From Promethearchaeota archaeon (GTDB taxonomy: Archaea > Asgardarchaeota > Thorarchaeia > Thorarchaeales > Thorarchaeaceae), in NCBI GenBank assembly GCA_027031765.1, contig JALVPN010000223.1:1-22314 (forward strand): a DNA stretch of 22,314 nt, given 5' to 3'. Shown here in pieces: positions 1 through 15,543 of this stretch. A program made the translations under genes and the position numbers. Positions within the stretch are counted from its first letter, which is position 1, and every line of letters starts with the position of its first letter. Below the pieces are notes generated by a model. The model was given only the letters and a program-made list of their open reading frames with translations, searched no databases and had not been told where the DNA came from.

Positions 1-992
1 ACATAGATCTCCACAAAGCGTGACCGGCCCTCATACGGGTCGTCCGATGTGAGGTTCCAGAGTTCGTTATCATACAGGAGAAACCTGTCATTCCCGAGGG
101 GTTTCAACGCATGCGCGTGATACCACAGGCTGTCGGTGACACCGCCGGTACGGTTGTAGAGTATGAAGTCCCCAAGCCGGCCACAGGCCCACTCGATGCC
201 CCCGGTCGCCATGTCAATCTTGTAGAATGTGTCAAGATGCCGCGAGTTGAGATACACCACATTATTGTAGAAGTCCCAGTAGATAGTATTGGAGTGTGTC
301 CAGTCAACGCTCAGGGTGGACTCGAACATCGCCCACGTCTCGTTACGCAGACGGTACTCGGCCTCATCGAAGGGGATGTGTTCGTACGCGTGCCACTCCC
401 AGATGAGGATGTCGTTGCGGTCAACCTCGTATATTGCATCGTGGAGGACTGGAGTCCCGTTGTACTCGCCATAGAACTCCCAGGTCAGGAGCAAGAACGT
501 GTCGGTCAACGGGTTGTACTCGATGTCATGGTGCACGCTGTCCACGAACAGAGGTAGGTACTCCGTCCGGTTCGTGTAGATGTCCCACAGTACGAGCTGC
601 TGGGACGGTAGTGGCATCAAGTATGCGAGGGTGGTGGCGTTGATCCACTCGAAGATGTGTACGAAGCCGGGCTCTGAGAAACCATTGACCACGTTGCCGA
701 CCATGTCTACAACCAGCACGTACGTGTACTCTGGGTCGAAGTACTGGTCCCATGCGGTCAGGGCAAGGAGGGTGAGCCCATTGAATGCGCGCCCTGCATC
801 GTAGACTGTCAGGTTCATAGAGTTGCGGACCTCGTCCAGCTGGGTGGGGTCCCAAGGGAGCCCTGTGTCCTGCGTCGCTTCATAGGGTGCTGTCACAACG
901 GGAGTACCGGAGGGCCTCGGGGCTGTGGCTGCCGGCGATAGGAGTACGGCCAGCAGTACAACAGCAACGACTGTCATCATCTCTGTTCTCAT
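1..992 (-). CDS. Secreted arylsulfate sulfotransferase (ASST family), 3' end runs off the window
   Basis: Not in the ORF track; I translated it from ATG at 992, and it is open to position 1. It begins MRTEMMTVVAVVLLAVLLSPAATA (signal peptide). It carries ASST-type motifs in the expected order: VHHDIEY, DWTHSNTIYWD, LNSRHLD, WYHAHAL, LYDNEL. There are seven N-x-S/T sequons in about 330 aa and a GAGGGA RBS 7 nt upstream. Confidence 0.85.
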   Translation of the reverse strand, partial: MRTEMMTVVAVVLLAVLLSPAATAPRPSGTPVVTAPYEATQDTGLPWDPTQLDEVRNSMNLTVYDAGRAFNGLTLLALTAWDQYFDPEYTYVLVVDMVGNVVNGFSEPGFVHIFEWINATTLAYLMPLPSQQLVLWDIYTNRTEYLPLFVDSVHHDIEYNPLTDTFLLLTWEFYGEYNGTPVLHDAIYEVDRNDILIWEWHAYEHIPFDEAEYRLRNETWAMFESTLSVDWTHSNTIYWDFYNNVVYLNSRHLDTFYKIDMATGGIEWACGRLGDFILYNRTGGVTDSLWYHAHALKPLGNDRFLLYDNELWNLTSDDPYEGRSRFVEIY

Positions 993-1341
993 GGCGTTGT
1001 CCCTCGGTATACTCAACAGCATTCGGGAATCCGACTGAAAAGGATTTCCGGTGCGGCCCACCGCAAGATTAGACAACCGTATCCCAGCCCATGCCATCCG
1101 GGCTGCGCGGGGGCCTTCTGAGGGGTGATGTACCGCCTATTACGGCACTGTAGCCATTGGGCCAGAGGTCATGGTGCCCATTGTCACACAGTGCACACCA
1201 TGTGTTGCGGGTGGCCACACAGTGCCGCGTTAGGGCATACTGGACACAACAGCCAACATGGCACACGGCCATTAGCCGTTGCATGCCCGCGGCACCAGTG
1301 GTGTAGCCCACAGACGGTGGCACTCACGAGAGGACGGCGGG

Positions 1342-2691
1342 TCACGAGATACGACGGATCCCGACCTTGCCGATGCAGCGGTACTCGAAACCGAGGTCCT
1401 CAACCGTCTTGCGGTCGAAGACGTTGCGCCCATCGACAATGGTGGGGGTGCGCATCACGTCCCGGATGGCCTCCAGGTCGAGTGAGAAGTACTGTCTGTG
1501 CTTTGTGACCAGTGCGAGGCAGTCAGAACCCCGTGCGGCCTCGACCACATCACGGAGGACCTCGTGCCGGCTGAACTCCCACGTCTGGACATAGGGGTCA
1601 TGGATGCGGACCGTTGCACCCTTTGCCTGCAGGGATGCGATGAGTGTAGCGGCAGGGGTGTTCCGTGTGTCGTCCGAGTCTTCAAGATATGCAACACCGA
1701 GCACAGTGACTGTGGCGTCCTGGACTGAAACACCACGGGCTGCAAGGGCGTTCTCGACCAGGTCGGACATGTGCACAGGCATGTGGTTGTTGATACGCCG
1801 TGCGAGGGAGATGAACTCTGGCTCAATCTTCCAGGTGCCGTACTCGTACAGGCCATAGCGCAGCAGCCATGGGTCCTTGGGGAGGCAGTGCCCACCGACC
1901 CCGGCACCTGGGATGTGCATATGCCTGTCGTCACGAGCGTTCACGAGGTCGATTATCTCATAGATGTTGACCCCGAGGCTCTCACACACCAGTGCCATCT
2001 CATTGGCGAATGCAATGTTGACGTCGCGGTAGGCGTTCTCAATAGTTTTCGCGAGTTCTGCTGTGAGCGTGTCGGTGGTGTATATCTTCTCCTTGACAAT
2101 CTTGGAGTAGAGTTCCACGGCGCGCTCAGTCCCCTTGGGAGTGATGCCACCGACGACCCTTGGCATGTGGACTATGAACTCAAGGAGTCGACCGGGCATG
2201 ACGCGCTCGTAGGAGAAGGCCAGGTCGAAGTCCTCACCGCCCTTCAGACCGGACTCGCGCTCGATTATCCTCTGGACAACGTTCTGGGTGGTACCAGGAG
2301 CCACCGTCGACTCCACAATCACGAGCGCACCCTTCTTTATCCGCTTGCCAATGTTTGCGCTGACCTCTCTCAGGGAGGTGTACTGTGGCATGTTCTGGGC
2401 ATCTGTCGGTGTCTGGACATCAATGAGAATGATATCAGCATCACGCAGTACCTCGGCATCGTCGGTGACGCGGAACGTGCCCTTTTCCACGACCCTCGCA
2501 ATCAGCTCGTCGAGGCCCGGCTCGACCCCCTCAAAGGGCGACCTACCACTGTTGAGGACATCAATCTTCCACCCTGACCGCTTCGACCTCCGCTGGAGAC
2601 CAATCACTTCATGGCCATTGACATCTGCAAGGAGGGCGGCCGCGGGGATGCCGACATATCCCATTCCAATGACAACTATCTTCGTAGACAC
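1342..2691 (-). CDS. Nucleotide-sugar dehydrogenase (UDP-N-acetyl-D-mannosamine/UDP-GlcNAc dehydrogenase, WecC/WbpA family)
   Basis: Rossmann IVVIGMGYVG; DVQTP; ESTVAPGTT; AKTIENAYRDVNIAFANE; catalytic GGHCLPKDP; DGRNVF. GTG start with GAGGGAG upstream. The exact substrate cannot be determined from sequence. Confidence 0.92.
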   Translation of the reverse strand: MSTKIVVIGMGYVGIPAAALLADVNGHEVIGLQRRSKRSGWKIDVLNSGRSPFEGVEPGLDELIARVVEKGTFRVTDDAEVLRDADIILIDVQTPTDAQNMPQYTSLREVSANIGKRIKKGALVIVESTVAPGTTQNVVQRIIERESGLKGGEDFDLAFSYERVMPGRLLEFIVHMPRVVGGITPKGTERAVELYSKIVKEKIYTTDTLTAELAKTIENAYRDVNIAFANEMALVCESLGVNIYEIIDLVNARDDRHMHIPGAGVGGHCLPKDPWLLRYGLYEYGTWKIEPEFISLARRINNHMPVHMSDLVENALAARGVSVQDATVTVLGVAYLEDSDDTRNTPAATLIASLQAKGATVRIHDPYVQTWEFSRHEVLRDVVEAARGSDCLALVTKHRQYFSLDLEAIRDVMRTPTIVDGRNVFDRKTVEDLGFEYRCIGKVGIRRIS

Positions 2692-2868
2692 TGGTGACTC
2701 CCTCTATCATGGTTCTGGTGAAGTGTGCTCGCAGGCCTTGGCGACGCTGAAAAAGCTTGTCATACAAGACCACCTGTGTGCCCCTGGACTGGCAGCCCTG
2801 TACAGGGGGCCCGCCAACACCTACAGGGCACCTGTACTCCGACCACAACCCGGGTACCGTCCCGGCCA

Positions 2869-3981
2869 CTAGAACGGGTACTCCCCAACGGGGTACGTCC
2901 CCGAGACTGGAAAACGGTCTGCCTCTTCGAACACCCCGACTTCAGCCTTTGCAAGCCCGTAGGGCAACCCGACACTCTCGACACCACTGAACAGGTCTTC
3001 GAACACAACATGGTGTTCGGACGGTGGCCTTGGTGGGGTCTCCGTCGACTCGGAGGTGCCAACTGTAAGAGTGAGCGTACCACTGGGAGTGTCTATGACC
3101 AGTCGACCGTCAGTCCCCTCAAGTACGAGCTGCTTCCTCGTGATGCCGGTGCCCTTGCCCACAGTACACTCGGTACTGACCCCGTCGAACTCCATCACCA
3201 AGTGCGCTGCGGTCTCCATGGGGTCAGTGATACCGTCGGGCAATGGCGTGTAGTGGAGCCGCGTGGCAGACCGCAGGCGCAGCTTCTCAGGGCTGAAGGC
3301 CTCAACCCCCAGGTCGAACAGCTTGAACAAAATGGACAGGAAGTGGACTGCAAGGTCACGTACCATACCGGACCTGTAGAGCCACATGCGGCTCGGACGG
3401 ATGGGTCTCGGCTCCAGCAGGTAGAAGGCCACCCGGGTGAGCGGCCCGATCTCGTCGAGGTACCGTGCATGTTCCTGGAGCACTTGCCGGACTGGCGGCT
3501 TGAAGAGGTAGTGGTCAACGAGGCGCAGGCGTGACAGAGCACCCAGGCCCAGTCCCTGTTCGAGCTGGAGCAGGTCCGACAGGCTGTCTGTGAGGGGTTT
3601 CTCCACGAGGACATGTCGCGCACGGGGGAGGAAGAAGTCTATGTAGGCGCAGTGAGTCCTGTTCGGCGTTGAAATATACACAACATCGAAGTGGTCGTCC
3701 GCCATGGCGCGTGTGATGTCCGCTACAAAGGCCTCACGACGGACATGGCAGAACGACAGTGTCAGGTCAATACCACGCTGCTGGGCCTCCGACTGCACCT
3801 GAGCGACCGCCATTTCCTGTGCCGGGTTGATGTCAACGACAACGACCTCCAAGGACTGGGTCTCACCAAGTAGAGGTAGGTCACCGGGGGCGGCATGCTC
3901 CAGTAGTGACATGAATGACGGCAGCACTTTGTAGCGCCCGATGTGCCCATACCCGACGAGACAGACGCGCGCAGTCATCAC
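2869..3981 (-). CDS. Gfo/Idh/MocA-family NAD(P)-dependent oxidoreductase with G6PDH-like features
   Basis: VCLVGYGHIG; VYISTPNRTH; HVLVEKPL; LVDHYLFKP; GMVRDLAVH (Dx3H). Confidence 0.82.
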   Translation of the reverse strand: MMTARVCLVGYGHIGRYKVLPSFMSLLEHAAPGDLPLLGETQSLEVVVVDINPAQEMAVAQVQSEAQQRGIDLTLSFCHVRREAFVADITRAMADDHFDVVYISTPNRTHCAYIDFFLPRARHVLVEKPLTDSLSDLLQLEQGLGLGALSRLRLVDHYLFKPPVRQVLQEHARYLDEIGPLTRVAFYLLEPRPIRPSRMWLYRSGMVRDLAVHFLSILFKLFDLGVEAFSPEKLRLRSATRLHYTPLPDGITDPMETAAHLVMEFDGVSTECTVGKGTGITRKQLVLEGTDGRLVIDTPSGTLTLTVGTSESTETPPRPPSEHHVVFEDLFSGVESVGLPYGLAKAEVGVFEEADRFPVSGTYPVGEYPF

Positions 3982-4146
3982 ACATCATAGAGTGGGTGGA
4001 GCAGGGGTTCAAGAATGCTTCGACTCGTGCCACTTGCACTGGCCGTGTGGGTGCTGTGAGGGCGCAGGGCAGGCCACACAGCCGGGGCGCTACATAGGCA
4101 TATGGCGTCCGGTGTGTCCGTATACCACAGTACTGCTGTCCAGGCC

Positions 4147-5541
4147 CTACCGGACGTACCGGGAGTGGTACATCAAAGTCCAGGCGGTCCACAGCACTGA
4201 TAGGACAATAATCGTATAGATGTGGACAGGCTCCAGTGCCCGGCCCAAGATTATGTCGATGGACGTGAGGACTGCAGTGACGAAGGATATTGCGTTCAGT
4301 ACGAGGAAGAGGACGTTCGAGTGGCGCTGGAAAGCAGTGAGGAGGTAGCTGTCGAGCATCTCAAGTCGTTCCCGTGCCGCATTGTAGAACTCGGGGACGG
4401 AGAGCTGTCGTGCTGCGTCCTCCATCGCAATCCTCCAGACCTCGATGCGCTGGATGCTCGTGTTGATGTACTCCTCAAGGTCCTGGTACAGGGCGCGGCG
4501 CAGGTCGACAATGTGACTCAGCGTGGCCTTGTCGAGGTTCTTGACAAGGTTCAGGAGGTTGTTGTTGATGTCCTTGATAAGGACGAGCTGCAACACCACG
4601 TTGGTGTACAAGACCACGTTGAACACTATGCGTTTGTCGAAGCCGTAGTCGGGCTCACCAGTACATATCTTGATCCCGAGGAAACGGTTACGGAACACGA
4701 ACACTGGGAAGTCGTTCCTCACAGAGATGTTCCGCAGGACCCGCTCCAAGTACTCCGGGGTGCGGGACTTGTGGTAGTCGTAGACCTTGCCATAGTAGCG
4801 GTCGGGCAGGGACACGATGTCGAAGATATGGTTGCGGTACTGTTCGATGAAGTCAGCAGGGAGTCTGACCGGGGTGTGTGTGTCAGGTATGCTCTCTCCT
4901 GTCTGTACACCAGACCCGGCACTGACATCTACTTGGGATGTGGGACTACCAAAGGGGAAGTCCTTCACGAACAGCATCACGAGGTGGTGCTCAATGAGGA
5001 ACGCATCATCGAGCTCGGCCTCCCAGTCAAGCCGTGAAAGGAGGGCCTCAACTCTGGCCTTCACGAACTCAAGCAGGGTCATCTTTCCAGCGTGATCCGG
5101 ACGTACGTGGATCTTGCTCAGGAAACACATGTCAATGATGTCACGTTTCGATACATCAGTCAACCCGGAGAGCCACAGGGTGTACACCCCAATACCGACA
5201 TCAAAGAGGGTAAGGAATGGTCGGGCATGAGCACGGATATCGCCGGTGTCGCGGACGAAAGAAACATCATACTCCTCAAGACCGATACGACAGAACCTCT
5301 TGAGGTCAAGGTATGCGGGGTCAAAGTACTCGATGTCACTGTCGTAGAACAGACGCAGGTATGATGGCAGCCTGTCCGGCTCCGAGACCTCTCGGGGGAT
5401 ATAGTATGACTCTCCAAGGCTGTCCCGTGCGTCACACGTGAGGATACGGTCTAGGCGGTGGCCCCGCCGGGCCACCCCGGTGAGGCTGAACGGGATAAGG
5501 AACACAACACTCAGCTCTGGCACTCTGAACTCGGGACTCAT
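4147..5541 (-). CDS. Hypothetical membrane protein with CorA-like architecture (large soluble N-domain, long helical stalk, two C-terminal TM helices), no GMN motif
   Basis: 464-aa ORF with host-like codon usage and GAGGG RBS. It has N-terminal VFLIPF, LFDVGIGVYTLW, a helical region ending EFYNAARERLEML, then two hydrophobic segments (VLFLVLNAISFVTAVLTSIDIILG; IYTIIVLSVLWTAWTLMY). The CDS is secure; the family call is tentative. Confidence 0.55.
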   Translation of the reverse strand: MSPEFRVPELSVVFLIPFSLTGVARRGHRLDRILTCDARDSLGESYYIPREVSEPDRLPSYLRLFYDSDIEYFDPAYLDLKRFCRIGLEEYDVSFVRDTGDIRAHARPFLTLFDVGIGVYTLWLSGLTDVSKRDIIDMCFLSKIHVRPDHAGKMTLLEFVKARVEALLSRLDWEAELDDAFLIEHHLVMLFVKDFPFGSPTSQVDVSAGSGVQTGESIPDTHTPVRLPADFIEQYRNHIFDIVSLPDRYYGKVYDYHKSRTPEYLERVLRNISVRNDFPVFVFRNRFLGIKICTGEPDYGFDKRIVFNVVLYTNVVLQLVLIKDINNNLLNLVKNLDKATLSHIVDLRRALYQDLEEYINTSIQRIEVWRIAMEDAARQLSVPEFYNAARERLEMLDSYLLTAFQRHSNVLFLVLNAISFVTAVLTSIDIILGRALEPVHIYTIIVLSVLWTAWTLMYHSRYVR

Positions 5542-5806
5542 CAGCCCTCACACTCGTCAGTTCCCGACTACTTGCAACACTGGACAGGGCCATGCGGGAC
5601 ACAGAGCACCATCCTGTAGTGGGCAATGAATCTTTCGGGCTGTGGGCACGATGACAATGTCGCAGGTCGGGTATGTACGGAGAACTCCGGGGCGTCTGCG
5701 ATGATACGCACGCGCACATGAAGAGATAAGTAGTGCCCCTCAAATAGAAACTGCACTTGCACGACATACCATGGGCCGTATCACTGACGGGTCTGACAGG
5801 CATTGG

Positions 5807-5812
5807 TTTATA
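5807..5812 (+). promoter_or_regulatory. Putative archaeal TATA box for pyk
   Basis: TTTATA in a GC-rich context, about 34 nt upstream of ATG 5846 and about 52 nt upstream of GTG 5864. Confidence 0.55.
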
Positions 5813-5845
5813 GCCGGCGACATGGTGCACTCTACTGATACGAAT

Positions 5846-7321
5846 ATGAGCCGCAGGTGCAGAGTGTTCGACCAGAACCGGACGAAGATAGTGTGTACGA
5901 CTGGCCCGGCATCAAGGTCGCGTGAGGTCCTTGAGGCTATGATAGAGGCCGGGATGGATGTCGCGCGGATCAACCTGTCGCATGCTGACCACGCAACTGC
6001 GAAGAAGACACTTGACACCATCAGGTCTATTGATGACACCATACCGGTCCTGTTCGACCTCCAGGGCCCGAAGATACGCATTGGCGAGATGGAAGGGCCG
6101 GTGGAGCTGAAGGCGGGTGACAGGTTCACGCTCTCAATCAAGGACTTTGTGGGTGATGCTACGCGTGCCTCGGTCTCGTACAAGGAGTTACCGCAGGACG
6201 TGTCCCCGGGCAATATGATAGCCATCAATGACGGGATTGTGCGGCTGCGCGTTGAGGAGGTCACGGACGAGGAGGTGGTGACCGTAGTGGTGCAGGGTGG
6301 GCCGATATCGAGCAGGAAGGGTGTCAATGTCCCCGGTATCAGGCTGTCGTGCACCATACCTACCGAGAAGGACATGCGCGACCTCGACCTGGCAGCAGAG
6401 CTCGAGCCGGAGCTGATAGCCATCTCCTTTGTACGCGACCCGGAGGACGTCAGACGGGTGCGTAAAATACTGGACGCCAACGGGCCCTCTGATGCATCAA
6501 TCATCAGCAAGATCGAGCACATGCTGGCGGTAAAGAACTACGACGCCATCCTCAAGGAGTCCCAGGGCGTGATGATAGCGCGTGGTGACCTCGGCATCGA
6601 GGTGCCGATAGAGGACGTGCCCATTCTCCAGAGGCGGCTCATCAGGGAGGCGAACGTGTGGGCCAGACCAACAATCGTGGCGACACACATGCTCGAGTCG
6701 ATGACCCATGAGGCAATCCCCACCCGGGCCGAGGTGAGCGATGTGGCCCACGCCGTGCTCGACAGGGCCGACGCGGTGATGCTCAGTGCTGAGACCGCCA
6801 TGGGACACAACCCGCCGGCAGCAGTGGACATGATGAACCGGATTGTGGGCCGTGCTGAGACCCAGCTCCCATGGGTCAACCCTGACGAGGTGACATCGCC
6901 ACGGAGGATGATTGTTGAGATTGTCGGCCACCTTGTGTACAATGCCGTGTGCCTCAACTCGTCTGTCGAAGGGGTGATAACGGCCACGCGGACAGGGTTC
7001 ACGGCGCGCTGGATCTCGAAGTTCAGACCACCCGCACACATCTTTGCGGTGACACGGAACAGACGGGTGATGCGCCAGCTGAGGCTGCTGTGGGGAGTCC
7101 ACCCGGTGCACTATGACACCGACCTTGAGAATGTCGACGACCTGATACTCGAGGCCGTGAGGGTGGTCTATGAGGAGGGGCTTGTTGACAAGGACTCCGA
7201 CATAGTGTTCACATCAGGCACCCGGCTGATACCCGGCAGGACCAACCTCGTGGGCGTGTTCCACGTCAGAGACCTGATCCGTGGACGGAAGAAGAGACCG
7301 CTGCGACGTGTGCATGGCTAG
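5846..7321 (+). CDS. pyk: Pyruvate kinase, K+-independent type
   Basis: RTKIVCTTGPAS, INLSH, DLQGPKIR, SRKGVN, ISFVR, SKIE, MIARGDLGIE, PTRAEVSDVA, VMLSAETAMG, GRTN. The track start at 5771 lies upstream of the TATA box and is unlikely; ATG 5846 or GTG 5864 (preceded by AGGTG) is more plausible. Confidence 0.97.
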   Translation: MSRRCRVFDQNRTKIVCTTGPASRSREVLEAMIEAGMDVARINLSHADHATAKKTLDTIRSIDDTIPVLFDLQGPKIRIGEMEGPVELKAGDRFTLSIKDFVGDATRASVSYKELPQDVSPGNMIAINDGIVRLRVEEVTDEEVVTVVVQGGPISSRKGVNVPGIRLSCTIPTEKDMRDLDLAAELEPELIAISFVRDPEDVRRVRKILDANGPSDASIISKIEHMLAVKNYDAILKESQGVMIARGDLGIEVPIEDVPILQRRLIREANVWARPTIVATHMLESMTHEAIPTRAEVSDVAHAVLDRADAVMLSAETAMGHNPPAAVDMMNRIVGRAETQLPWVNPDEVTSPRRMIVEIVGHLVYNAVCLNSSVEGVITATRTGFTARWISKFRPPAHIFAVTRNRRVMRQLRLLWGVHPVHYDTDLENVDDLILEAVRVVYEEGLVDKDSDIVFTSGTRLIPGRTNLVGVFHVRDLIRGRKKRPLRRVHG

Positions 7322-7463: not shown

Positions 7464-9485
7464 GTGACCAGAAGACAGGAGCGTGGCCTTCCCGGGCCAG
7501 TTGTGGAGGCACTGCACGACCACCGGCTGCGGACTGCAGCGTATGTCGTACCACTGGTGTACATACTTGGCCTGCTGTCTGTGCCATACACGCTACGAGG
7601 GGCCATCCCTGCGGGCTGGGACACCGGCATACACCTCTACTACACACGACTGGTACTCGATGGGGACTTCGACAGGCTCATGGGCCTTGCGAGGGGGAAT
7701 AACGTCCTGCCTATGGTGCTGGTCGCGGCGCTGTCGCTGGTGATGTCATCGGACATCATGCTGAGCCGGATTGTGCTCACCTATGTACTGCACCTCGCAC
7801 TGATGGCCGTGTACTGGTGGGCCGGCAGGCGCACTTATGGGCAGCCCGAAGGGGGTACTCTTGCAGTGGTGTTCTTCGCTGTCTGGGCAGGCGCGTTCCG
7901 CCTCTCCGCAGACCTGCACAAGACCCTGCTGGCATATCTGTTCACACTGCCGGTGCTTGTCCTCTACACAAGGGACGACCTGTCCCTCCGGACCCGTGCA
8001 GCCCTTGTTGCAATGATGGGCGTGGCATCACTGGCCCAGATCGAGCTCTGTGTGCTCGTCCTTGGGACGGCCGTGCTGTACGAAGTGTGGTCGGTCGTCG
8101 TAAGACGACGCACAGACTACCGGAGGCTGCTACTCCTCATCTCCTTGGGGCTCGCTGTGGTGCCTGCATTCCTCCTTGCCCTGTCCTACAGCACGTACTT
8201 CATCAGCGTGGCAATAACGTACCAGGTACCCCTTGACGCGATGGCACCGGGCCCGGCCTTCGTGTTCCTTGGGATTGCACTCGCACCCCTTGTCGTGATT
8301 GGCCTCCTGCTCACTGCCCGTGACCTGCTCCGCCGCCGCAGGACCAGTACCACTACCAGCACCAGTACCACGGACAGGGACTTCCAGCCCGACCTCCTCC
8401 ACGTCTTTGCAGTGCTCATAGTGTTCCTCTTGCTGATACCATCGTTCTTCATTGCAGAGCCGACCCTCTTCAGGAGGATGGCACCACGCGCAATGGTGCT
8501 GCTGCCAGTGCCAGTACTGGTCATCGACGGCATCAGATGGGTCTACAGCCTTGAGACCACCACGCCTCCTCACGTACACCACAGACGCGTGGGTTTCAGA
8601 CATGGTGTGGCCATCGGGCTGCTCAGCCTCGTGGTCATGACCGGTGCGGTACTCCCGACCCAGACCGTCATATACCACGACCAGTACATAAGTGGCCCCT
8701 CAATGGCACGACTCAGGGCACTCGCAGAGCACGTGGACCACAACAAGACGCTGGTCGCTGTTGTGGACGAGTACCCGGTGAAGGCCTACAGGGACTACGG
8801 GTGGACTGGCGCTTACATTGGCTACTGCACCTACTTCAACGGACCACTCCATTTCCTCGTCGCGGGAGTCCTGTACCCTGATGACAACCCCATGTACAAG
8901 AACATGATGAACGACCAGATGGCGCGTATGAGGGCAGACGGAGTGCAGTTCCCACTCACAGACCCGGGTGTCCAGATTGTGTTTACAGAGGACTTCTACG
9001 GCCACCCGACCACTGTGGAGAGGGCCCTCAGCCAGGAGGTCTACCCGGGCGCATACATCATGAATGCAAGCCGCGCCTCGCTCCTGCTCAGGTACTACGA
9101 GGTGAGCCCCGCAAAGCCGTTCAACACAACGGGGCCCTGGGCAACAGTGATGGTGGAGGACATGCCACACATGGTGCTTGACGACGACGACCTGACCGGC
9201 AACGAGTCGGTAACATACGCCCTTGTGGCCTATACCGGTGGGACACTGAGGGTCGAGGTCGAGTACATGGACTACAATGCTACAGTGCCGGGGATTGTCC
9301 TCCTATTGAACGGTACTCGGGCCGCCAGTGCCAACTATACGGGCACCATGACACCGTGGACGCTGACAGCCAGCACTGATGTGACAAGTACGAGCACGGT
9401 GTTCCTGACAGTCAGAGTTGCTGGCCCCGGAAACGGCATGGTAGACCTGGGCCAGATATACGTGTACCTGACCCCCAACGAGTGA
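7464..9485 (+). CDS. Multi-pass membrane protein, putative GT-C-fold glycosyltransferase with extracellular C-terminal domains (paralog 1)
   Basis: About 11-13 hydrophobic segments. An acidic first-loop motif PAGWDTGIHLYY follows TM1, then RLSADLHKTLLAYL. The soluble C-terminal ~270 aa has multiple N-sequons (NKT, NAS, NTT, NES, NAT, NGT, NYT). It is collinear with 12158..14092. Confidence 0.7.
   Translation: MTRRQERGLPGPVVEALHDHRLRTAAYVVPLVYILGLLSVPYTLRGAIPAGWDTGIHLYYTRLVLDGDFDRLMGLARGNNVLPMVLVAALSLVMSSDIMLSRIVLTYVLHLALMAVYWWAGRRTYGQPEGGTLAVVFFAVWAGAFRLSADLHKTLLAYLFTLPVLVLYTRDDLSLRTRAALVAMMGVASLAQIELCVLVLGTAVLYEVWSVVVRRRTDYRRLLLLISLGLAVVPAFLLALSYSTYFISVAITYQVPLDAMAPGPAFVFLGIALAPLVVIGLLLTARDLLRRRRTSTTTSTSTTDRDFQPDLLHVFAVLIVFLLLIPSFFIAEPTLFRRMAPRAMVLLPVPVLVIDGIRWVYSLETTTPPHVHHRRVGFRHGVAIGLLSLVVMTGAVLPTQTVIYHDQYISGPSMARLRALAEHVDHNKTLVAVVDEYPVKAYRDYGWTGAYIGYCTYFNGPLHFLVAGVLYPDDNPMYKNMMNDQMARMRADGVQFPLTDPGVQIVFTEDFYGHPTTVERALSQEVYPGAYIMNASRASLLLRYYEVSPAKPFNTTGPWATVMVEDMPHMVLDDDDLTGNESVTYALVAYTGGTLRVEVEYMDYNATVPGIVLLLNGTRAASANYTGTMTPWTLTASTDVTSTSTVFLTVRVAGPGNGMVDLGQIYVYLTPNE
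8343..8372 (+). repeat. Short imperfect direct repeat encoding a Thr/Ser tract (TSTTTSTSTT)
   Basis: ACCAGTACCAC occurs at 8343-8353 and 8361-8371 (18-bp period) within ACC-rich codons. Confidence 0.7.
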
Positions 9486-9494
9486 GGGCCACTC

Positions 9495-10688
9495 TCAGTC
9501 CACATCCGCCCTGGCCGGACGGACGACTGCCCCCACCTGTGGACCGGAGCGGGTGTCTGCAGTCCACGCACAGAGGAAAAAGGCGACCTGTCCGGCAAGG
9601 AGGGCCAGTCCAAGGCCAAAGAGTCCGAGGGACGGGACGACCAGGACCATGCATGCGTACTGCCCTCCGAGGGCACCCCCATAGGAGACCAGCACCCCAG
9701 TGGTGTGGTCCGCAGCCAGCAGGCGTGCCACGTAGGTGCTGGCAAGTGTGGCCGGCACCACGGCCAGGGAGACCACACAGAGAGTGGCCACCGTGTCAGC
9801 ATACTGCGGGAACACGGACGGTATGAGGACGGGGGCAGCCACCACAGAGAGGACGGCGAGGACCACCGACATCAGCACTGACAGGAGGACGGCCCGTCCC
9901 GTAGCGGCACCGCTGGCGGTCTCGGGGATCAGATAGTTGCGGGTGGTCGCAGGCAGGGCGAGCAGTACCATGAAGACCTGGGACACGAACTGGTACTCGC
10001 CGAGAGTGGTGAGCCCCAGCCATGCACCGACCACCAGCTTGTCAAGATAACTCGACAGCGTCCGGGCAACGGTCACCGCACCGAGGGTGCAGACCAGCTG
10101 CCAGTGCGCCCTCAGTGGCACGAGCGACAGGTGCCTGAGCCCGTGGGCTGCACTGCGCAGGAACTCCATGCCCAGCAGGACTGGTGGCAAGGAGTACATG
10201 AGGGCCACAGTGAGGGGTGGCTGGCCGGTCAGGACACCATAGATGCCAGCGACGGCCATCCCGACCCCGCAGCCAGCACTCCAACCCGAGAAGTGGAGGT
10301 ACCGTCGCCGTGCGAGGAGGTCGTAGGTCGTCATGGAGAAGCTTGTCTGTCCGAATACCATTGGCACATAGTACATTGAGCCGGCGAGTGTTGCCACAGG
10401 GAGGGCGACCGGGAGCAGCAGCAAGAGGACGATGGCATTGAACACCGGGAGTACGTGGGGGTCTGTACCACGGGGGTGCACCGTCTGGACTGTCATGCCG
10501 AACCCGGCCACAACAATGGAGCTCACAACATTGCTGACCGAGAGTGCAAACGCCACCTCTCCAAATGCGTCCTTTGCCATGAGGGCTGCACCGACAAACC
10601 AGAACAGTGCTAGGGACAGGAGGTTGACACCACTCGCAATGGCCATCACGAACAGTCTGTACGGCCTGCTCTCCGTAGTCCGCTCCAA
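9495..10688 (-). CDS. Oligosaccharide flippase (Wzx/MOP superfamily, polysaccharide biosynthesis protein)
   Basis: About 12 TM segments; early AFGEVAFALS; mid-protein YLDKLVVGAWLGLTTLGEYQF (Wzx-type D-x-x-x-x-G...G-x-Y motif). TTG start with GGAG upstream; located among glycosyltransferases. Confidence 0.82.
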   Translation of the reverse strand: MERTTESRPYRLFVMAIASGVNLLSLALFWFVGAALMAKDAFGEVAFALSVSNVVSSIVVAGFGMTVQTVHPRGTDPHVLPVFNAIVLLLLLPVALPVATLAGSMYYVPMVFGQTSFSMTTYDLLARRRYLHFSGWSAGCGVGMAVAGIYGVLTGQPPLTVALMYSLPPVLLGMEFLRSAAHGLRHLSLVPLRAHWQLVCTLGAVTVARTLSSYLDKLVVGAWLGLTTLGEYQFVSQVFMVLLALPATTRNYLIPETASGAATGRAVLLSVLMSVVLAVLSVVAAPVLIPSVFPQYADTVATLCVVSLAVVPATLASTYVARLLAADHTTGVLVSYGGALGGQYACMVLVVPSLGLFGLGLALLAGQVAFFLCAWTADTRSGPQVGAVVRPARADVD

Positions 10689-10750
10689 GTCAGAGGTCTC
10701 CTGCGTAGCAGCTGGTCAGCCGGGTGCGGCAGGCCGGCCCTGGCACATGA

Positions 10751-10756
10751 TTTAAG
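10751..10756 (+). promoter_or_regulatory. Putative TATA box between divergent flippase and GT4 genes
   Basis: TTTAAG lies 24 nt before ATG 10780, consistent with a leaderless transcript. The reverse strand reads CTTAAATC, about 62 nt before the flippase start. Confidence 0.5.
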
Positions 10757-10779
10757 TCTTCGCGGCCAGCACGGGGCCA

Positions 10780-12033
10780 ATGGAGAGCACCGTGGACGCA
10801 GCAACCGTGACCAAGGTGGAGCACGGGCCACAACCCGGCCCTGTACGGGGACTCCGCCTCGTCGTGTTCACTGCAAACCCACTTGAGGCCTATGTCAGGA
10901 AAGGCACGATCAGGAGGTTCAACCGCGACATCAACCCAACAGGCCTCTTCAACAGCGTGACAACAGTCTATGTCAGCGACGATGGGCCGTCTGGTGAGTA
11001 TGTGGTCCACGGTATCCACGCCATGCGGATACGGCACTGGTCCCTGCCACTGGACATGCTGCGCCTGGTGGTCGCCGGGGTACGGGCCGTGCTCCAGACA
11101 CGGGCCTGCGTCGTCCGTGCATACTGTGCTGAGCTCCCGGGCCTCGCGGCTGTCCTCACCGGCCGGCTCACAGGCCGCAGGAGCGTTGTCTCAGTGCACG
11201 CGGACATCCAGTCGATAATGCGACAGAGGGGGTACAGCAGGGTGGCGAGGCTCCTTGTGGGCCTGCTCCACCGTGTCGTCTACCGGCTCAGCACACAGGT
11301 CTGGTGTGTGAGCGAGTGGCTTGCACAACACCTGGTGCAGCTGGGTGTGCCTGCCCGGAAGATAAGGGTGACATATAACAAGGTGGACACGGCACGGTTC
11401 CGGAGGACGACCCAGGGCCGGGATGAGGTCAGGCACGCCCTCGGCATCCCCCCGAGAGCACTGGCGCTCGTACACGTGGGCCGGCTGAGTCAAGAGAAGC
11501 ACATTGATGTCCTCATCCGTGGCCTTGCGGCCCTCAGACAACAGGGACACAGTGCCCACCTCATTCTCGTCGGTACAGGACTCGACTCCAGGGGACAGTC
11601 GTATGTCAGGGGACTGCAGGGGTTGATGGGCCGACTGGGACTTGGTGCATACGTCCACTTCATAGGGGGGCAGCCGAACGAACGTGTACCGGACATACTA
11701 CATGCTGCTGACGTGTACGTGTCTGCGTCCATTTCCGAGGGCTTTGGGGTGGCACTAGTAGAAGCACAGGCTGCAGGGGTGCCACTAGTTGTCACATGCG
11801 AACTTGCAGAAGAGGGGCACGGGCTTGTCCTGACCGGTGAGAACGCCCTCACGTACCCGGCCGGGTCGCCCACTGGCCTTGCAGAGTGCGTGTTGCGTCT
11901 CACGCGGAACCCCGACCTTATACAAAGGCTGAGGGAGGCAGGCGTGATGAATGCAGCACGGTTCGACTGGGAAACAGTTGCCAAGAGGGAGGCAGCACTC
12001 TATAGGGAAGTGTGTGGTACTGGCGCTATGTGA
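10780..12033 (+). CDS. Glycosyltransferase family 4 (GT-B, retaining)
   Basis: YNKVDTARF; HVGRLSQEKHIDVLI; ADVYVSASISEGFGVALVEAQAAGVP (Ex7E motif); RFDWETVA. Confidence 0.93.
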   Translation: MESTVDAATVTKVEHGPQPGPVRGLRLVVFTANPLEAYVRKGTIRRFNRDINPTGLFNSVTTVYVSDDGPSGEYVVHGIHAMRIRHWSLPLDMLRLVVAGVRAVLQTRACVVRAYCAELPGLAAVLTGRLTGRRSVVSVHADIQSIMRQRGYSRVARLLVGLLHRVVYRLSTQVWCVSEWLAQHLVQLGVPARKIRVTYNKVDTARFRRTTQGRDEVRHALGIPPRALALVHVGRLSQEKHIDVLIRGLAALRQQGHSAHLILVGTGLDSRGQSYVRGLQGLMGRLGLGAYVHFIGGQPNERVPDILHAADVYVSASISEGFGVALVEAQAAGVPLVVTCELAEEGHGLVLTGENALTYPAGSPTGLAECVLRLTRNPDLIQRLREAGVMNAARFDWETVAKREAALYREVCGTGAM

Positions 12034-12157
12034 TGGGTTGCCGTCCATGGCCCGGACACGGCAAGAGTCATAAGAAGAGCGTCATGGGCAAGTCGTGCGC
12101 TCCCGTCGTGTGTGAGAGGAGCAGCCACTGACAAGCGCAGGAGAGGAAACACGCTAC

Positions 12158-14092
12158 ATGTTGAGTGGAGAACTGCAGGACAGGATGTGCGTAACGTCTG
12201 CCGTGCTGGCAGTGGTCTTCACAGTGGTGGTACTCGTAAGGCCCTACTTCACATGGGGCTGGATCCCAGTCGGCTGGGACACCGCAATACACCTCTACTG
12301 GGCAAGACTGATTGTGGACGGCGATATCCAGCGTGCCCTTGAAGTCACCCATGGGTTCAACCTCCTGCCCTCAGTGACCATAGCAGCGGTGTCTGCCATC
12401 ACGGGGCTCGACATCCTCGGCGCCAGGATCCTGCTCACAGTCCTCCTGCCACTCCTGCTCCTTGTCGCTTTCTACTGGACAGCCCACGACCTGTTCGAGG
12501 ACAGGCGCTATGCGGTACTGGCACTAGTAGTAGCGGCTGTCTGGTTCTCGACCTACCGGCTCTCGGCAGACCTGCACCGCACCCTGCTGGCATACCTGTG
12601 CCTAGTACCTGTCTTCGCACTCTACGTCCGCAACGGCCACAGCACACGGGACGTCTTGATGATGGCGATGCTCGCGGCAGTCGCAACGTTCGCCCAGCAA
12701 CAGGTCGTGATATTCTTCCTCATCAATGTGGGGCTCGTAGAGGGCTGGCGGGCCATCAGGTTCAGGACCCTGGACACCCGCTCGGTGGTAAAGGCCCTTG
12801 CGGTGACTGCGGCCATGCTGCCCGCACTACTGCTGTCCTCACTATATGGCTCCAACGTGGTGGTTGGTGCAATCACAGGTACTGTGACCTGGCCGCCGCC
12901 AGACATACGACACGTGGCCCTGACGATGGGAGGGCCCATGATGCCGTTCACGTTGCTCGGCCTGGGGCGTGGGCTGTACGATGTGTTTACAGACCCCACA
13001 GGCAAGCTGAGGCTGGTCGAGACCTTTGGCCTGAGCATTGTCTTCTTGGTGTACCTCCCGTCCCTCGTCATCACGCAGCCGGTCGTGTTCCGGATGATGG
13101 CCACACGGGCAATGACCGTCCTGCCGACGCCCATCTTCGTGGTCCTGGGTCTCAGAGAGACCATGCGTGTGGCCAGAGGGGGTGCAGTCACAGCCCCGAG
13201 CATCCTGCACGACCCCAGAGTGATACTCGCGACGGCGACCATAGTCGTGGTAATCATGTCCGGGATGGTGACACAATACGAGGCGACAGTCCACCACAGA
13301 CCCTTTGTCACACAGGACGCCCTTGACCAGCTACGTGCAGTTGCGGAATGGACAGACGGACAGCTGCTGGTAGTGGTCGTGCGTTCACATGTTACTGTCA
13401 CTGCGTTCAAGGACGCGAGCTGGGCAGGAGTCATACTGGGCGAGTACCTGTACTACAACGGCCCACTGTGCTTTCTCGCAGCAGGACGGGCCTGGCCACT
13501 GGGAGACCCAGAGCAGACACGCAAGGGAGCATCACAGATAAACGACCTGATTGCCAAAGGGGTCTCGTTCCCCCTTGACAATGCGAGCGTCAAGGTCGTC
13601 GTCGTGGAGGCCCTCTACGGCCGGCTCACCACACTGGAGGTGGCCATTGCACATCAGGTGGACAAGGGGGCATTCCTCTTTGCCGGCAACGACCTTGTGT
13701 CCCTGACTGTGGAGTACGAACTCAGCCCTAGTGACTACTGCAACTACTCTGGGGACTGGAGGCTGGAGTGCGACGATACGGCATGCATCCACCTCGGCCG
13801 GGCAGACCTCACAGGCGAGGAGGAGATTGCATACCCGGTTGTCGTCACTACCAGCGGACAGTACAACATCACACTACAGTACGAGGACTTTGACACTGAA
13901 TACGGGGGGTTCAACATAGAACTTGATGGGAGGACCGTAGCATCCGTGGAGTACGGTGGCACGGGCACACAGAACGTGACCATCAGCACAGTGCTGTCGT
14001 CAGACTCTGTTTCGCTGCTGCGGGTGACACCCATCAGGGCCGGTACCGGTGAGATTGCATTGTCAAGGGTCATTGTCACCCGTGCTACGTGA
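12158..14092 (+). CDS. Multi-pass membrane protein, putative GT-C-fold glycosyltransferase with extracellular C-terminal domains (paralog 2)
   Basis: PVGWDTAIHLYWARLIVDGD, YRLSADLHRTLLAYL, RMMATRAMTVLPTP, YYNGPLCFLAAG, GVSFPL, DLTGEE, all collinear with 7464..9485. The C-terminal region is beta-rich with sequons NAS, NYS, NIT, NVT. Confidence 0.7.
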   Translation: MLSGELQDRMCVTSAVLAVVFTVVVLVRPYFTWGWIPVGWDTAIHLYWARLIVDGDIQRALEVTHGFNLLPSVTIAAVSAITGLDILGARILLTVLLPLLLLVAFYWTAHDLFEDRRYAVLALVVAAVWFSTYRLSADLHRTLLAYLCLVPVFALYVRNGHSTRDVLMMAMLAAVATFAQQQVVIFFLINVGLVEGWRAIRFRTLDTRSVVKALAVTAAMLPALLLSSLYGSNVVVGAITGTVTWPPPDIRHVALTMGGPMMPFTLLGLGRGLYDVFTDPTGKLRLVETFGLSIVFLVYLPSLVITQPVVFRMMATRAMTVLPTPIFVVLGLRETMRVARGGAVTAPSILHDPRVILATATIVVVIMSGMVTQYEATVHHRPFVTQDALDQLRAVAEWTDGQLLVVVVRSHVTVTAFKDASWAGVILGEYLYYNGPLCFLAAGRAWPLGDPEQTRKGASQINDLIAKGVSFPLDNASVKVVVVEALYGRLTTLEVAIAHQVDKGAFLFAGNDLVSLTVEYELSPSDYCNYSGDWRLECDDTACIHLGRADLTGEEEIAYPVVVTTSGQYNITLQYEDFDTEYGGFNIELDGRTVASVEYGGTGTQNVTISTVLSSDSVSLLRVTPIRAGTGEIALSRVIVTRAT

Positions 14093-14149
14093 CCTGGCGA
14101 GCACCCCGTGTGTGCGCCACCTGACCGGCCGTACACATCGTGGTGGCCC

Positions 14150-15274
14150 TCAGCACATGGCTGCAATGACTGCAAAGTAGTCCTCTGCAAGGCGGGCCCA
14201 GTCGAATGCCTTGGCACGCTCGCGGCCCATCAGTACCAGGCGCCGTGCGAGGGCCCGGTCGGACAGCACCCGGACTATTGCCTCACTGAGGCCCTGCACA
14301 TCGTGGAAGAACAGCACAGCATCACCTGCGAGCCTGCGCACCTCCACAAGGTCTCTGGACACCACCGGGATGTCGGCGGCCCAGTACTCGAAGAGCTTCA
14401 TGGGGCATGCCACTTCGGTGAGTGGGCTCTTCACGAACGGGATCACTCCGACCGAGAGGCGTCGCATGATGGCAGGAATCTCGTCATACGAGATGTGGCC
14501 ATGTACGAAGACCCCATCATGGACATCTGCCAGCTCCTTCACGGCAGCCTCGTTGCCGCCAATACCGAAGATGTGGTATTCCACAGTCGGGAAGACCCGG
14601 GCTACGGCCGGGTAGGAGCGGATCAGGTCGTCCACACCAGACCACTCGTGGACTCCTCCGACATAGCCTACAACCAGCCGCGCCCCTTCATGGCTGTCCG
14701 GTGGTGCGAAAGAGTGCACTGTCACGCCGTTCGGGATGTACACGGGTGCCACACCCGTTGCCTTGAGCACGCGCTGGCGGAGCGGCTCCGAACTGACTAT
14801 CACCGTGTCCGAGTCGTGCACGACCACGGACATGAACTTCCGGATCACGGCCGCCACCGGGGACCTGAGAGTACGTGGCACATACTGGGAGGCAAGACCG
14901 GAGATGTCATCCACATAGTCGAACACAACACGCACACCAAGGGCCCTCTTGAGGAGCATCACTGGGAGCACAAGCACCGGGTTGGTGCTGACGACGACAT
15001 GGATGTGGTGTTTCCTTATCAGGTGCAGTATGAAGAGCCACAGCGGGAACAGGTTCAGCAAGTAGAACAGCGCGGTGCGTCGGCGCGTCAGTACACATGG
15101 GGCACGGTGCACCCACAGTCGTGATGTACGGATGGTGGACTCGAACAGTGGGAAGTGTACCACGTGTACCTCAGCATCAGGGTGGCCCACATCCTCAAAG
15201 AACCTGTGGAGGCGGTTCTCGGGTCCACCGAGCCAGTCGATTGCTGGTATGACGAGAATCCTGCACCGTCCCAT
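14150..15274 (-). CDS. Glycosyltransferase family 4 (GT-B)
   Basis: VVFDYVDD; YIPNGV; VGYVGGV; VHGHISYDEIP; PMKLFEYWAADIPVV; FDWARLA. ATG 15274 preferred over the track's GTG 15283. Confidence 0.92.
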   Translation of the reverse strand: MGRCRILVIPAIDWLGGPENRLHRFFEDVGHPDAEVHVVHFPLFESTIRTSRLWVHRAPCVLTRRRTALFYLLNLFPLWLFILHLIRKHHIHVVVSTNPVLVLPVMLLKRALGVRVVFDYVDDISGLASQYVPRTLRSPVAAVIRKFMSVVVHDSDTVIVSSEPLRQRVLKATGVAPVYIPNGVTVHSFAPPDSHEGARLVVGYVGGVHEWSGVDDLIRSYPAVARVFPTVEYHIFGIGGNEAAVKELADVHDGVFVHGHISYDEIPAIMRRLSVGVIPFVKSPLTEVACPMKLFEYWAADIPVVSRDLVEVRRLAGDAVLFFHDVQGLSEAIVRVLSDRALARRLVLMGRERAKAFDWARLAEDYFAVIAAMC

Positions 15275-15543
15275 TGCTCTCACAGATTCCTTGCTTCGAT
15301 GTCTGGCGGACCCGTCGTTGCGTCAAACGGTCACCACTCTTCAAGGTTTCCCCTTGACCACACCCAACATGCTGCTGGACTGGCCTGTGTGGGTGGGCCC
15401 TGACCATGCCTGAGCAGTGGTGAAGCATGGCAGTGACGTGCCTCAGACCACACCCGGCGTGACCGGAGAGCAGGTGGCCACCGGAGCACAGGTGTCCGAC
15501 AACATGGTAGAGCAAAACAGAATAGACCCATTGACACTCGACA

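Follow-up and report, generated by a model that had tools for sequence, protein, structure and literature searches.

Twin GT-C-like membrane glycosyltransferases of an unnamed family, with GT4 and MOP-like partners, form a candidate module for lipid-linked glycan assembly and transfer in a thorarchaeal genome

The window analyzed here is the whole of a 22,314-nucleotide stretch of DNA (contig JALVPN010000223.1, assembly GCA_027031765.1; G+C approximately 60%) from a Promethearchaeota archaeon of the order Thorarchaeales. It carries a run of five genes (Table 1) in the layout put forward in an original prediction made from the DNA letters: a large GT-C-like protein (paralog 1, +), a polytopic membrane protein (−), a GT4 glycosyltransferase (GT4a, +), a second large GT-C-like protein (paralog 2, +), and a second GT4 glycosyltransferase (GT4b, −). 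The two large proteins are paralogs, as had been claimed, with 33% identity over their full length (631 residues, BLASTP E 3e-96), and both open reading frames (ORFs) are intact. Every sequence block quoted as common to them is present in both, namely GWDT, IHLY, DGD, RLSADLH, LLAYL, RxMAxRAM, LPxP, YxNGPLxFLxAG, GVxFPL, and DLTGxE. At the DNA level, 34 of 39 bases match between positions 7902–7940 and 12560–12598, both in frame and coding for LSADLH[K/R]TLLAYL. For GT4b, comparison with an orthologue favors the methionine at residue 4 (M4, ATG at 15274) as the start over the upstream GTG at 15283.

Table 1. Genes, domains, and proposed active-site segments of the module, with probable accessory genes, in window coordinates.
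Feature	Position	Strand	Basis
GT-C paralog 1, 673 aa: GT-C domain, external alpha/beta domain, CBM35-like C-terminus	7464..9485	+	ORF, paralog alignment
MOP/Wzx-like polytopic membrane protein (P0003), 397 aa, candidate lipid-linked glycan flippase	9495..10688	-	sub-threshold NCBIfam match, orthologues
GT4a glycosyltransferase, 417 aa, GT-B fold, family GT4	10780..12033	+	Pfam
GT-C paralog 2, 644 aa, the modelled copy	12158..14092	+	AlphaFold2, fold matches
GT4b glycosyltransferase, 377 aa from GTG 15283; likelier 374 aa from ATG 15274	14150..15283	-	Pfam
External mixed alpha/beta domain, paralog 2 aa 380-515	13295..13702	+	DSSP of model
CBM35/CBM6-like beta-sandwich, paralog 2 aa 518-644	13709..14089	+	profile and fold
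Equivalent of the CBM35-like module in paralog 1	~9090-9482	+	alignment to paralog 2
GWDT, aa 51-54, external loop 1, proposed catalytic Asp53, paralog 1	7614..7625	+	
GWDT, aa 39-42, proposed catalytic Asp41, paralog 2	12272..12283	+	
RLSADLH, aa 146-152, external loop 2, D-x-H motif, paralog 1	7899..7919	+	
RLSADLH, aa 134-140, D138-x-H140, paralog 2	12557..12577	+	
RRMAPRAMVLLPVP, aa 337-350, invariant Arg342 and P-x-P motif, paralog 1	8472..8513	+	
RMMATRAMTVLPTP, aa 312-325, invariant Arg317, Pro323, Pro325, paralog 2	13091..13132	+	
Arylsulfotransferase-like protein (ASST, PF05935), runs off the window	3-1097	-	Pfam
UDP-sugar 6-dehydrogenase	1342-2691	-	Pfam
Gfo/Idh/MocA oxidoreductase	2869-3981	-	Pfam

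GT-C enzymes, GT4 enzymes, and Wzx-type flippases are all known kinds of protein. What is new is an unannotated GT-C family with its own signature, a CBM35-like C-terminus, and a conserved four-gene partnership, in which the GT-C gene is duplicated at this locus. Even at a threshold of E≤1, no Pfam or NCBIfam model recognizes either paralog, and we found no published description of the family in the literature on STT3-like and AglB-like proteins that lack the WWDYG motif. The signature comprises P-x-G-W-D-T-P-x-Y, Y-R-L-x-[AS]-D-L-H-x-N-L-L, [HQ]-x-E-T, and R-x5-P-x-P. When 1.84 billion representative sequences were searched exhaustively with a profile, 113 relatives were recovered at E≤1e-3, including 22 at E≤1e-30; a word-index search, which covered 5.8 billion proteins, recovered only two and did not pick up paralog 2, and a four-sequence family alignment searched against species genomes yielded no confirmed relative. 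Two distant members give weak matches to GT22 (E approximately 1e-3).

A structural model of paralog 2 was built with AlphaFold2 from a 67-sequence family alignment (mean pLDDT 93.5, pTM 0.91). Paralog 1 gave a poor model of its own (pLDDT 52, from a four-sequence alignment), and its architecture was therefore read from paralog 2 by alignment. The GT-C fold proposed for these proteins is borne out by the confident model: in a VIA-align search of all representatives, paralog 2 scored highest against Archaeoglobus fulgidus AglB (Z 29.5; 416 residues, rmsd 3.9, model residues 13–510), followed by human STT3B (28.3), PglB (24.1), ArnT (22.9), and AftA (22.8), with lower scores for ALG12 (20.1) and Pmt1/2 (19.9). 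Each of the top five matches aligns 416–445 residues and extends to model residues 510–515. Foldseek likewise ranked STT3, PglB, AglB, AftD, and ArnT as the top PDB matches (E approximately 2e-8, TM score approximately 0.5, probability 1.00).

Beyond this point, residues 518–644 of paralog 2 form a predicted beta-sandwich that matches carbohydrate-binding modules (CBMs) of families CBM35, CBM6, and CBM36 (VIA-align Z 12–13.6, rmsd 2.2–2.9, 113–130 residues; Foldseek E approximately 1e-5). The family profile, searched against the sequences of solved structures, matched the CBM35 of a GH31 enzyme (E 2.8e-12) and the CBM35 of CITase (2.6e-7); CBMs were its only matches, and no GT-C protein was among them. 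Neighbors in the ESM Atlas comprise unnamed archaeal and Verrucomicrobiota clusters of the same shape, PMT_2 proteins with a CBM60, and eukaryotic STT3. The model shows a predicted architecture of approximately 11 transmembrane helices with the N-terminus inside, an external alpha/beta domain, and a C-terminal CBM35-like module predicted to bind carbohydrate. Based on the helices of the model and the alignment to AglB, the inside loops hold approximately 12 Lys/Arg per approximately 55 residues, and the outside loops approximately 6 per approximately 115. All N-x-S/T sequons of the two paralogs (seven and four) sit past the last transmembrane helix. Since all sequons lie there and the loop charges obey the positive-inside rule, the C-terminal part is placed outside.

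The residues conserved in the family lie in external segments of the predicted membrane domain (counts refer to the family alignment of 66–67 sequences, in paralog 2 numbering). In loop 1, G39 and D41 are invariant (66/66 each), with W40 in 62 and T42 in 54 of the 66; in loop 2, R134 is kept in 54/67, D138 in 54/66, and H140 in 60/67; in a late segment, R317 is invariant (67/67), accompanied by P323 (58/67) and P325 (62/67). The placement outside of the loop that holds the GWDT aspartate, as the original prediction requires, agrees with the positive-inside rule applied to the helices of the model. In hhalign comparisons, D41 aligns exactly with the catalytic aspartate of the AglB FDP motif in external loop 1 and with the aspartate of the D-E motif of PMT_2. 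The R..D-L-H block aligns with AglB R-T-x-A-G-F-x-D-N-E at a three-residue offset, and R317..P with AglB M-I-R-L..A-P at a one-residue offset. A. fulgidus AglB (AfAglB) binds its metal through Asp47 in a G-N-D motif and through Asp161 and His163 in a D-H-H motif (PMC8342417), and the family's G-W-D and D-L-H motifs appear to resemble these in pattern. The invariant arginine, in the last external loop, would hold a lipid phosphate or pyrophosphate, and the fold together with Arg317 suggests a putative polyprenyl-phosphate-linked sugar donor.

A further external position separates the twins. Glutamate is found at position 182, within the loop-3 [HQ]-x-E-T motif, in 56 of 67 family members; paralog 1 (Glu194, 8043–8045) and the closest relatives keep it, and paralog 2 has Gln182 (12701–12703). 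This difference may mark functional divergence. Its absence from paralog 2 could also be taken to suggest that these proteins are inactive GT-C-fold scaffolds or glycan-binding membrane proteins, or that the fold is conserved by chance. We regard this as very improbable: the loop-1 aspartate and the arginine are invariant and the D-x-H pair is strongly conserved in a 67-sequence alignment whose columns average 19% identity, both reading frames are uninterrupted, and the glycosyltransferase neighbors are conserved.

The high structural similarity to AglB and STT3 raises the question of how the family relates to N-glycosylation enzymes. Neither paralog matches Pfam STT3 (PF02516) at E≤1, a model that scores the genome's own AglB at 3.1e-54. 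In AfAglB, the TIXE, WWDYG, and DK/MI motifs read the sequon (PMC8342417). No counterpart of these was found in the family: the position aligned with the TIXE/SVSE glutamate of external loop 5 is T or P in the paralogs, with no conserved acidic residue across family columns 240–255; WWDYG, which follows the last transmembrane helix in GT66 enzymes, is absent from both paralogs, and the family is variable at the aligned position after a conserved P-I-F-V strand; and the aligned external domain has no conserved Lys/Met or Met/Ile pattern of the DK/MI type, the motif by which the Ser/Thr pocket is completed. With all three missing, the sequon-binding apparatus appears to be absent. This agrees with the claim of the original prediction that neither paralog is AglB, and a canonical AglB is encoded on another contig. 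The suggestion that YRDYGW of paralog 1 occupies a position comparable to WWDYG did not survive: WWDYG maps approximately eight residues upstream, and the YRDYGW aspartate aligns with the aspartate of AglB DNxT. The segment is found only in paralog 1, paralog 2 having FKDASW. As a degenerate WWDYG it was ruled out, with the aspartate in only 9 of 67 sequences, the tryptophan alone in 48 of 67, and no alignment with WWDYG.

These observations bear on whether the twins could be alternative N-oligosaccharyltransferases, that is, AglB paralogs with a rewritten sequon-recognition site. AglB and STT3 are the closest solved structures, the G-x-D and D-x-H patterns match AfAglB, and paralog 1 carries YRDYGW after its last transmembrane helix. 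We nonetheless consider such a role highly unlikely, in view of the missing STT3 match and recognition motifs, the poor conservation and displaced alignment of YRDYGW, and a profile distance to AglB that is no smaller than that to PMT_2. Compared with GT66 enzymes (AglB, STT3, and PglB), and especially AfAglB-L (3WAJ, 7E9S), the family shares its best fold match over the membrane domain and first external alpha/beta domain, a G-x-D in loop 1 and a D-x-H in loop 2 that resemble the AfAglB metal ligands in pattern, a conserved arginine followed by proline in the late segment, and an external C-terminal region ending in beta-sandwich units; it differs in that approximately 11 transmembrane helices were counted against the 13 of AglB, and in that its C-terminal module has a CBM35/CBM6-type fold.

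The relationship to PMT_2 was assessed by hhalign using 11 Asgard PMT_2 proteins, although neither paralog matches the PMT_2 model (PF13231) at E≤1. The family aligns with 23 Asgard AglB sequences at probabilities of 96–98.5%. In the whole-protein control, it scored 96.3% against AglB (E 1.7e-9) and 95.7% against PMT_2 (E 9e-9, 441 columns), with AglB against PMT_2 at 97.8%; for the membrane domain only, the values were 95.3% against PMT_2 and 88.4% against AglB. Since the family is approximately equidistant from GT66 and PMT_2 by profile, it is treated here as a separate GT-C_A branch, an origin from AglB not being demonstrable. The case for closeness to AglB is made by the structure scores together with the patterns of D-x-H and Arg.

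Comparison with PMT_2, ArnT, and PMT enzymes (PF13231; GT83, GT39) shows a loop-1 aspartate that falls on the D-E motif and a membrane domain that aligns better than it does with AglB; the Atlas clusters combining PMT_2 with a C-terminal CBM60 are similar in overall architecture. The family differs in that nothing in the PMT_2 alignment corresponds to its D-x-H motif or to its invariant Arg..P-x-P. In ArnT and PMT systems, the partners are a polyprenyl-phosphate sugar synthase of family GT2 and small flippases, whereas the conserved partners here are GT4 enzymes and a MOP protein. A further parallel is offered by the mycobacterial Emb, AftA, and AftD arabinosyltransferases, which act on polysaccharide acceptors and in which a GT-C membrane domain is followed by external domains that include CBM-type beta-sandwiches. 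Their acceptors suggest, by analogy, a possible model for the use of the CBM35-like module. The proteins described here are much smaller, archaeal, and set in a different gene context, and no sequence relationship to Emb, AftA, or AftD was detectable beyond the superfamily.

Turning to the partner genes, the GT4 identity assigned to both is upheld by matches above Pfam cut-offs. GT4a matches Glycos_transf_1 (1.4e-27, 96.8 bits) and Glyco_transf_4 (8e-13, 49.2 bits), and its nearest solved relative is MshA (1.2e-14). GT4b matches Glyco_trans_1_4 (9e-18, 65.3 bits), with further domains at 44.3 and 32.1 bits, and its nearest solved relative is PimA (2e-9). A predicted complex of GT-C paralog 2 (residues 1–400) with GT4b scored 0.00, below the mark, a result that is uninformative about binding. 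The flippase label is the least secure element of the original observation, since the MOP-like protein has no Pfam match at E≤1 and its NCBIfam match is sub-threshold: it hits WZX_like (NF041503) at E 1.5e-4, with 21 bits against a cut-off of 300. By Atlas features, the protein scores 0.99 to archaeal "oligosaccharide flippase" clusters of approximately 380 residues, of whose members 10–17% carry Polysacc_synt or Polysacc_synt_3. Orthologues with 32–45% identity occur in four related loci (L004, L030, L031, and L032), and the L030 copy has a weak PF01943 match. A profile of five orthologues searched against the PDB found no solved MOP protein and gave only chance-level matches to MscS.

Association of GT-C homologs with glycosylation genes in other genomes, on which the proposed function had been made to depend, was observed: in nine of ten relatives, the contig that holds the GT-C gene also carries a GT4 gene, next to it or overlapping it in eight cases, and the closest clade also has the same flippase-like gene. 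Five loci of the close clade were compared with the window by BLASTP. The closest, L004, encodes counterparts of GT4b (47% identity, adjacent), GT4a (40%), and the MOP-like protein (45%), together with a PIG-L deacetylase and a hexapeptide-repeat protein. L005, a 5-kb contig too short to reach a MOP gene, holds GT4b (44%, adjacent) and GT4a (36%) and no other such genes. L030 has GT4b (43%) and the MOP-like protein (32%), with an AglJ/DPMS/ArnC-like GT2 and a UDP-GlcNAc 2-epimerase; GT4a was not found there. L031 combines GT4b (41%, adjacent), GT4a (22%), and the MOP-like protein (34%) with epimerases and methyltransferases, and L032 combines GT4b (45%, adjacent), GT4a (35%), and the MOP-like protein (34%) with an arylsulfotransferase 37% identical to that of the window.

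Of the two GT4 genes, GT4b shows the tighter linkage to the GT-C family, and GT4-to-GT-C adjacency recurs in most loci examined. Among distant members (P0017, P0020, and P0021), a GT4 gene is adjacent or two genes off. In L149, the GT4 gene (1995–3215) overlaps the start of the GT-C gene (3208–5169) by 8 nucleotides, which suggests translational coupling of the pair; this locus, like L030, also contains an AglJ/DPMS/ArnC-like GT2 gene. In three other Asgard genomes, GT4 genes and two or three copies of the family are interleaved in a single locus, and a twin GT-C in a GT4-rich locus is therefore recurrent. In L153, one strand carries a GT4 gene followed by a GT-C gene, and the opposite strand has the two kinds in reverse order. 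In the family tree, the clade with P0007, P0010, and P0011 is supported at 98/97. Branching within it is open and the branches of the two window proteins are long, so that the tree does not decide for or against a sister relationship of the paralogs. By identity, paralog 1 is nearer to a relative from a metagenome (40%) than to paralog 2 (33%). Given this, the identity between the twins, and the Gln/Glu difference in loop 3, it is probable that the twins act at different steps or with different specificities.

Additional genes lie upstream in the window. The ASST, UDP-sugar 6-dehydrogenase, and oxidoreductase genes (3..3981) are probable accessory genes of the same glycan locus, and a UGDH-like gene is also present in an Asgard locus with multiple GT-C genes (L152). 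The window ASST gene is 6 kb upstream of paralog 1, and the L032 ASST gene (1–2706, −) stands beside the same GT-C/GT4/MOP module; the occurrence of an ASST gene in both loci is a hint that the glycan of the module is sulfated outside the cell. Between the sugar-nucleotide genes and paralog 1, a complete pyruvate kinase gene (5771–7321, +; PK barrel 6.5e-100) forms an unexpected housekeeping interruption of the glycan locus. A 464-residue ORF (4147–5541, −) has no Pfam match at E≤0.01 and no counterpart in the related loci. Large ORFs devoid of Pfam matches adjoin the module in L032 (13310–16510, 1066 aa) and in the P0012 contig (5185–7773, 862 aa), and could encode surface proteins or more unannotated membrane enzymes. 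Finally, a carbamoyltransferase-like ORF (20427–21392, −) has only the Asp/Orn-binding half (PF00185, 4.3e-8), without the carbamoyl-phosphate-binding domain.

The arrangement of the module recalls that of the Campylobacter Pgl and Haloferax Agl systems, in which a single locus likewise encodes cytoplasmic GT-B or GT-A enzymes, a flippase candidate, and an outward-facing GT-C; the AglJ-like GT2, UDP-GlcNAc 2-epimerase, and methyltransferase genes added in related loci extend the likeness. It departs from both in that the GT-C is not an oligosaccharyltransferase by motif and in that no primer enzyme is part of the core. The flippase of Pgl, PglK, is an ABC transporter, and the candidate here is a short MOP-like protein of approximately 390 residues.

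The source genome has exactly two copies of the GT-C family (genome completeness 95%) and one canonical AglB of 917 residues, encoded on another contig (C40; L006:79–2832, L150). The latter has FDP, DNE, SVAEH (SVSE-type), WWDYGYW, DNxTxNxT, and D-G-K-W-P-W-M (DK) motifs, is strongly eukaryote-like (E 3.5e-89 to human STT3A), and is 61–68% identical to AglB from Candidatus Thorarchaeota metagenome-assembled genomes and 31–38% identical to that of other Asgard lineages. These identities indicate a Thorarchaeota-like origin for the window; a haloarchaeal, methanogen, or Thermoplasmatota source, also considered, was rejected on the same grounds. Its gene is surrounded by translation and RNA-processing housekeeping genes (eIF2-alpha, ProRS, and a NOG1-like GTPase), and no glycosylation genes occur in the 10 kb to either side of it. 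In the phylum, 39 of the 41 genomes sampled had AglB. The distribution of the GT-C family is patchy, as is usual for surface-glycan genes: a looser family profile detected it in 47 of 400 genomes of the phylum (24 of 85 genera) and, within the taxonomic family of the source archaeon, in no more than 2 of the 85 other genomes. Thus, both the genomic setting of AglB and the patchiness of the module speak for the independence of the two. As the module is missing from nearly all sampled AglB-bearing relatives, it is not a general part of Thorarchaeota N-glycosylation.

Together, these proteins may form a pathway for a lipid-linked glycan, a proposal based on the conserved synteny of the GT-C, GT4, and MOP genes. 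A primer would be made elsewhere, for example by the single AglH/ALG7-like enzyme of the genome, which is encoded on another contig. On the cytoplasmic face, GT4a and GT4b would extend a sugar linked to polyprenol or dolichol (pyro)phosphate, and the MOP/Wzx-like protein would flip the product. At the outer face, the twin GT-C enzymes would transfer the glycan, once or repeatedly, to an acceptor other than Asn-x-Ser/Thr, most likely a glycan chain or the hydroxyl group of a surface protein or lipid. The proposed site would comprise the loop-1 G-W-D aspartate, the loop-2 D-x-H pair, and the invariant arginine of the last loop, with the CBM35-like module holding the glycan during transfer. We consider it an even prospect that the module builds, flips, and transfers a lipid-linked glycan to a non-sequon acceptor in this way.

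Several points weigh against this proposal. No priming phosphoglycosyltransferase is encoded within the module, and the assignment of the flippase falls below every curated threshold. No other MOP-type flippase was detected in the source genome with PF01943, PF13440, or PF04506 (the PF04506 control was silent everywhere); as the only MOP-like gene found, P0003 might therefore serve the AglB pathway. Regarding the active site, D-L-H lies three residues, and the arginine one residue, off the AglB positions, such that equivalence is a matter of pattern and position and not of superposed coordinates. PMT_2 and ArnT-type enzymes use polyprenyl-phosphate monosaccharides, and because the family is as near to these by profile as it is to AglB, an oligosaccharide donor is not implied by homology.

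The same evidence lends itself to a reading in which the GT-C enzymes decorate the AglB glycan after flipping. Here, the GT4 enzymes and the MOP-like protein would build and flip the glycan of AglB, and the GT-C enzymes would add dolichyl-phosphate-linked monosaccharides to it on the outside, while it is on lipid or protein, with the CBM35-like module binding the acceptor glycan. Such additions have precedents in Haloferax AglS and in the lumenal ALG3/9/12 and ALG6/8/10 enzymes, all of which add sugars after flipping. This possibility gains from the profile proximity to PMT_2 and the ALG12 match (Z 20.1), from a carbohydrate-binding module that suits a glycan acceptor, from the AglJ/DPMS/ArnC-like polyprenyl-phosphate glycosyltransferases of L030 and L149, and from a genome in which P0003 is the sole MOP-like gene detected and AglB has no glycan genes around it. 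It is weakened by the lack of a dolichyl-phosphate sugar synthase in the conserved core or the window, by a D-x-H and Arg pattern nearer to the metal and pyrophosphate site of AglB than to the sites of ArnT or PMT, and by the near-absence of the module from AglB-bearing relatives. On balance, we view decoration of the N-glycan as possible, though somewhat doubtful.

The nearest solved relatives of the GT4 enzymes, MshA and PimA, bring to mind instead the assembly of a glycolipid or lipoglycan resembling phosphatidylinositol mannosides and lipomannan or glycosylphosphatidylinositol (GPI). By analogy with these, GT4a (MshA/PIG-A-like) and GT4b (PimA-like) would glycosylate an inositol- or glycerol-lipid of the membrane at its inner face, the MOP-like protein would flip it, and the GT-C enzymes would extend it on the outside. 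A PIG-L-family deacetylase in L004 fits this scheme, as does the presence of PimE, AftA, AftB, and GPI mannosyltransferase I among the fold matches. The GT4 similarities, though, are at a generic family level, PIG-L occurs in one related locus only, and PimE and GPI mannosyltransferase I score Z 13.5–15, far weaker than the Z 28–29.5 of AglB and STT3, leaving glycolipid assembly unlikely.

Returning to transfer of a lipid-linked glycan to a non-sequon acceptor, a bolder version can be framed. The four-gene unit of GT-C, two GT4 enzymes, and a short MOP protein would constitute a self-contained, AglB-independent means of glycan transfer in Asgard and other archaea, in which the GT-C either polymerizes a flipped lipid-linked oligosaccharide or moves it en bloc to a non-Asn acceptor, and the twins of this locus divide the polymerase and ligase roles. 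In bacteria, such work is done by Wzy-type polymerases and by WaaL- and PglL-type ligases. We advance this only tentatively and hold it to be improbable as a whole.

To our knowledge, the chemistry of the Asgard cell surface is almost uncharted. If the family only decorates the N-glycan, its recognition would be a useful annotation and no surprise. If the bolder version is true, archaea of the lineage closest to eukaryotes would have a novel enzymatic means of making surface polysaccharide or of O-type glycosylation. A rare family with a defined motif set, a carbohydrate-binding module, and a conserved gene partnership would provide a testable handle on a second, non-AglB route of surface glycosylation in Asgard archaea.

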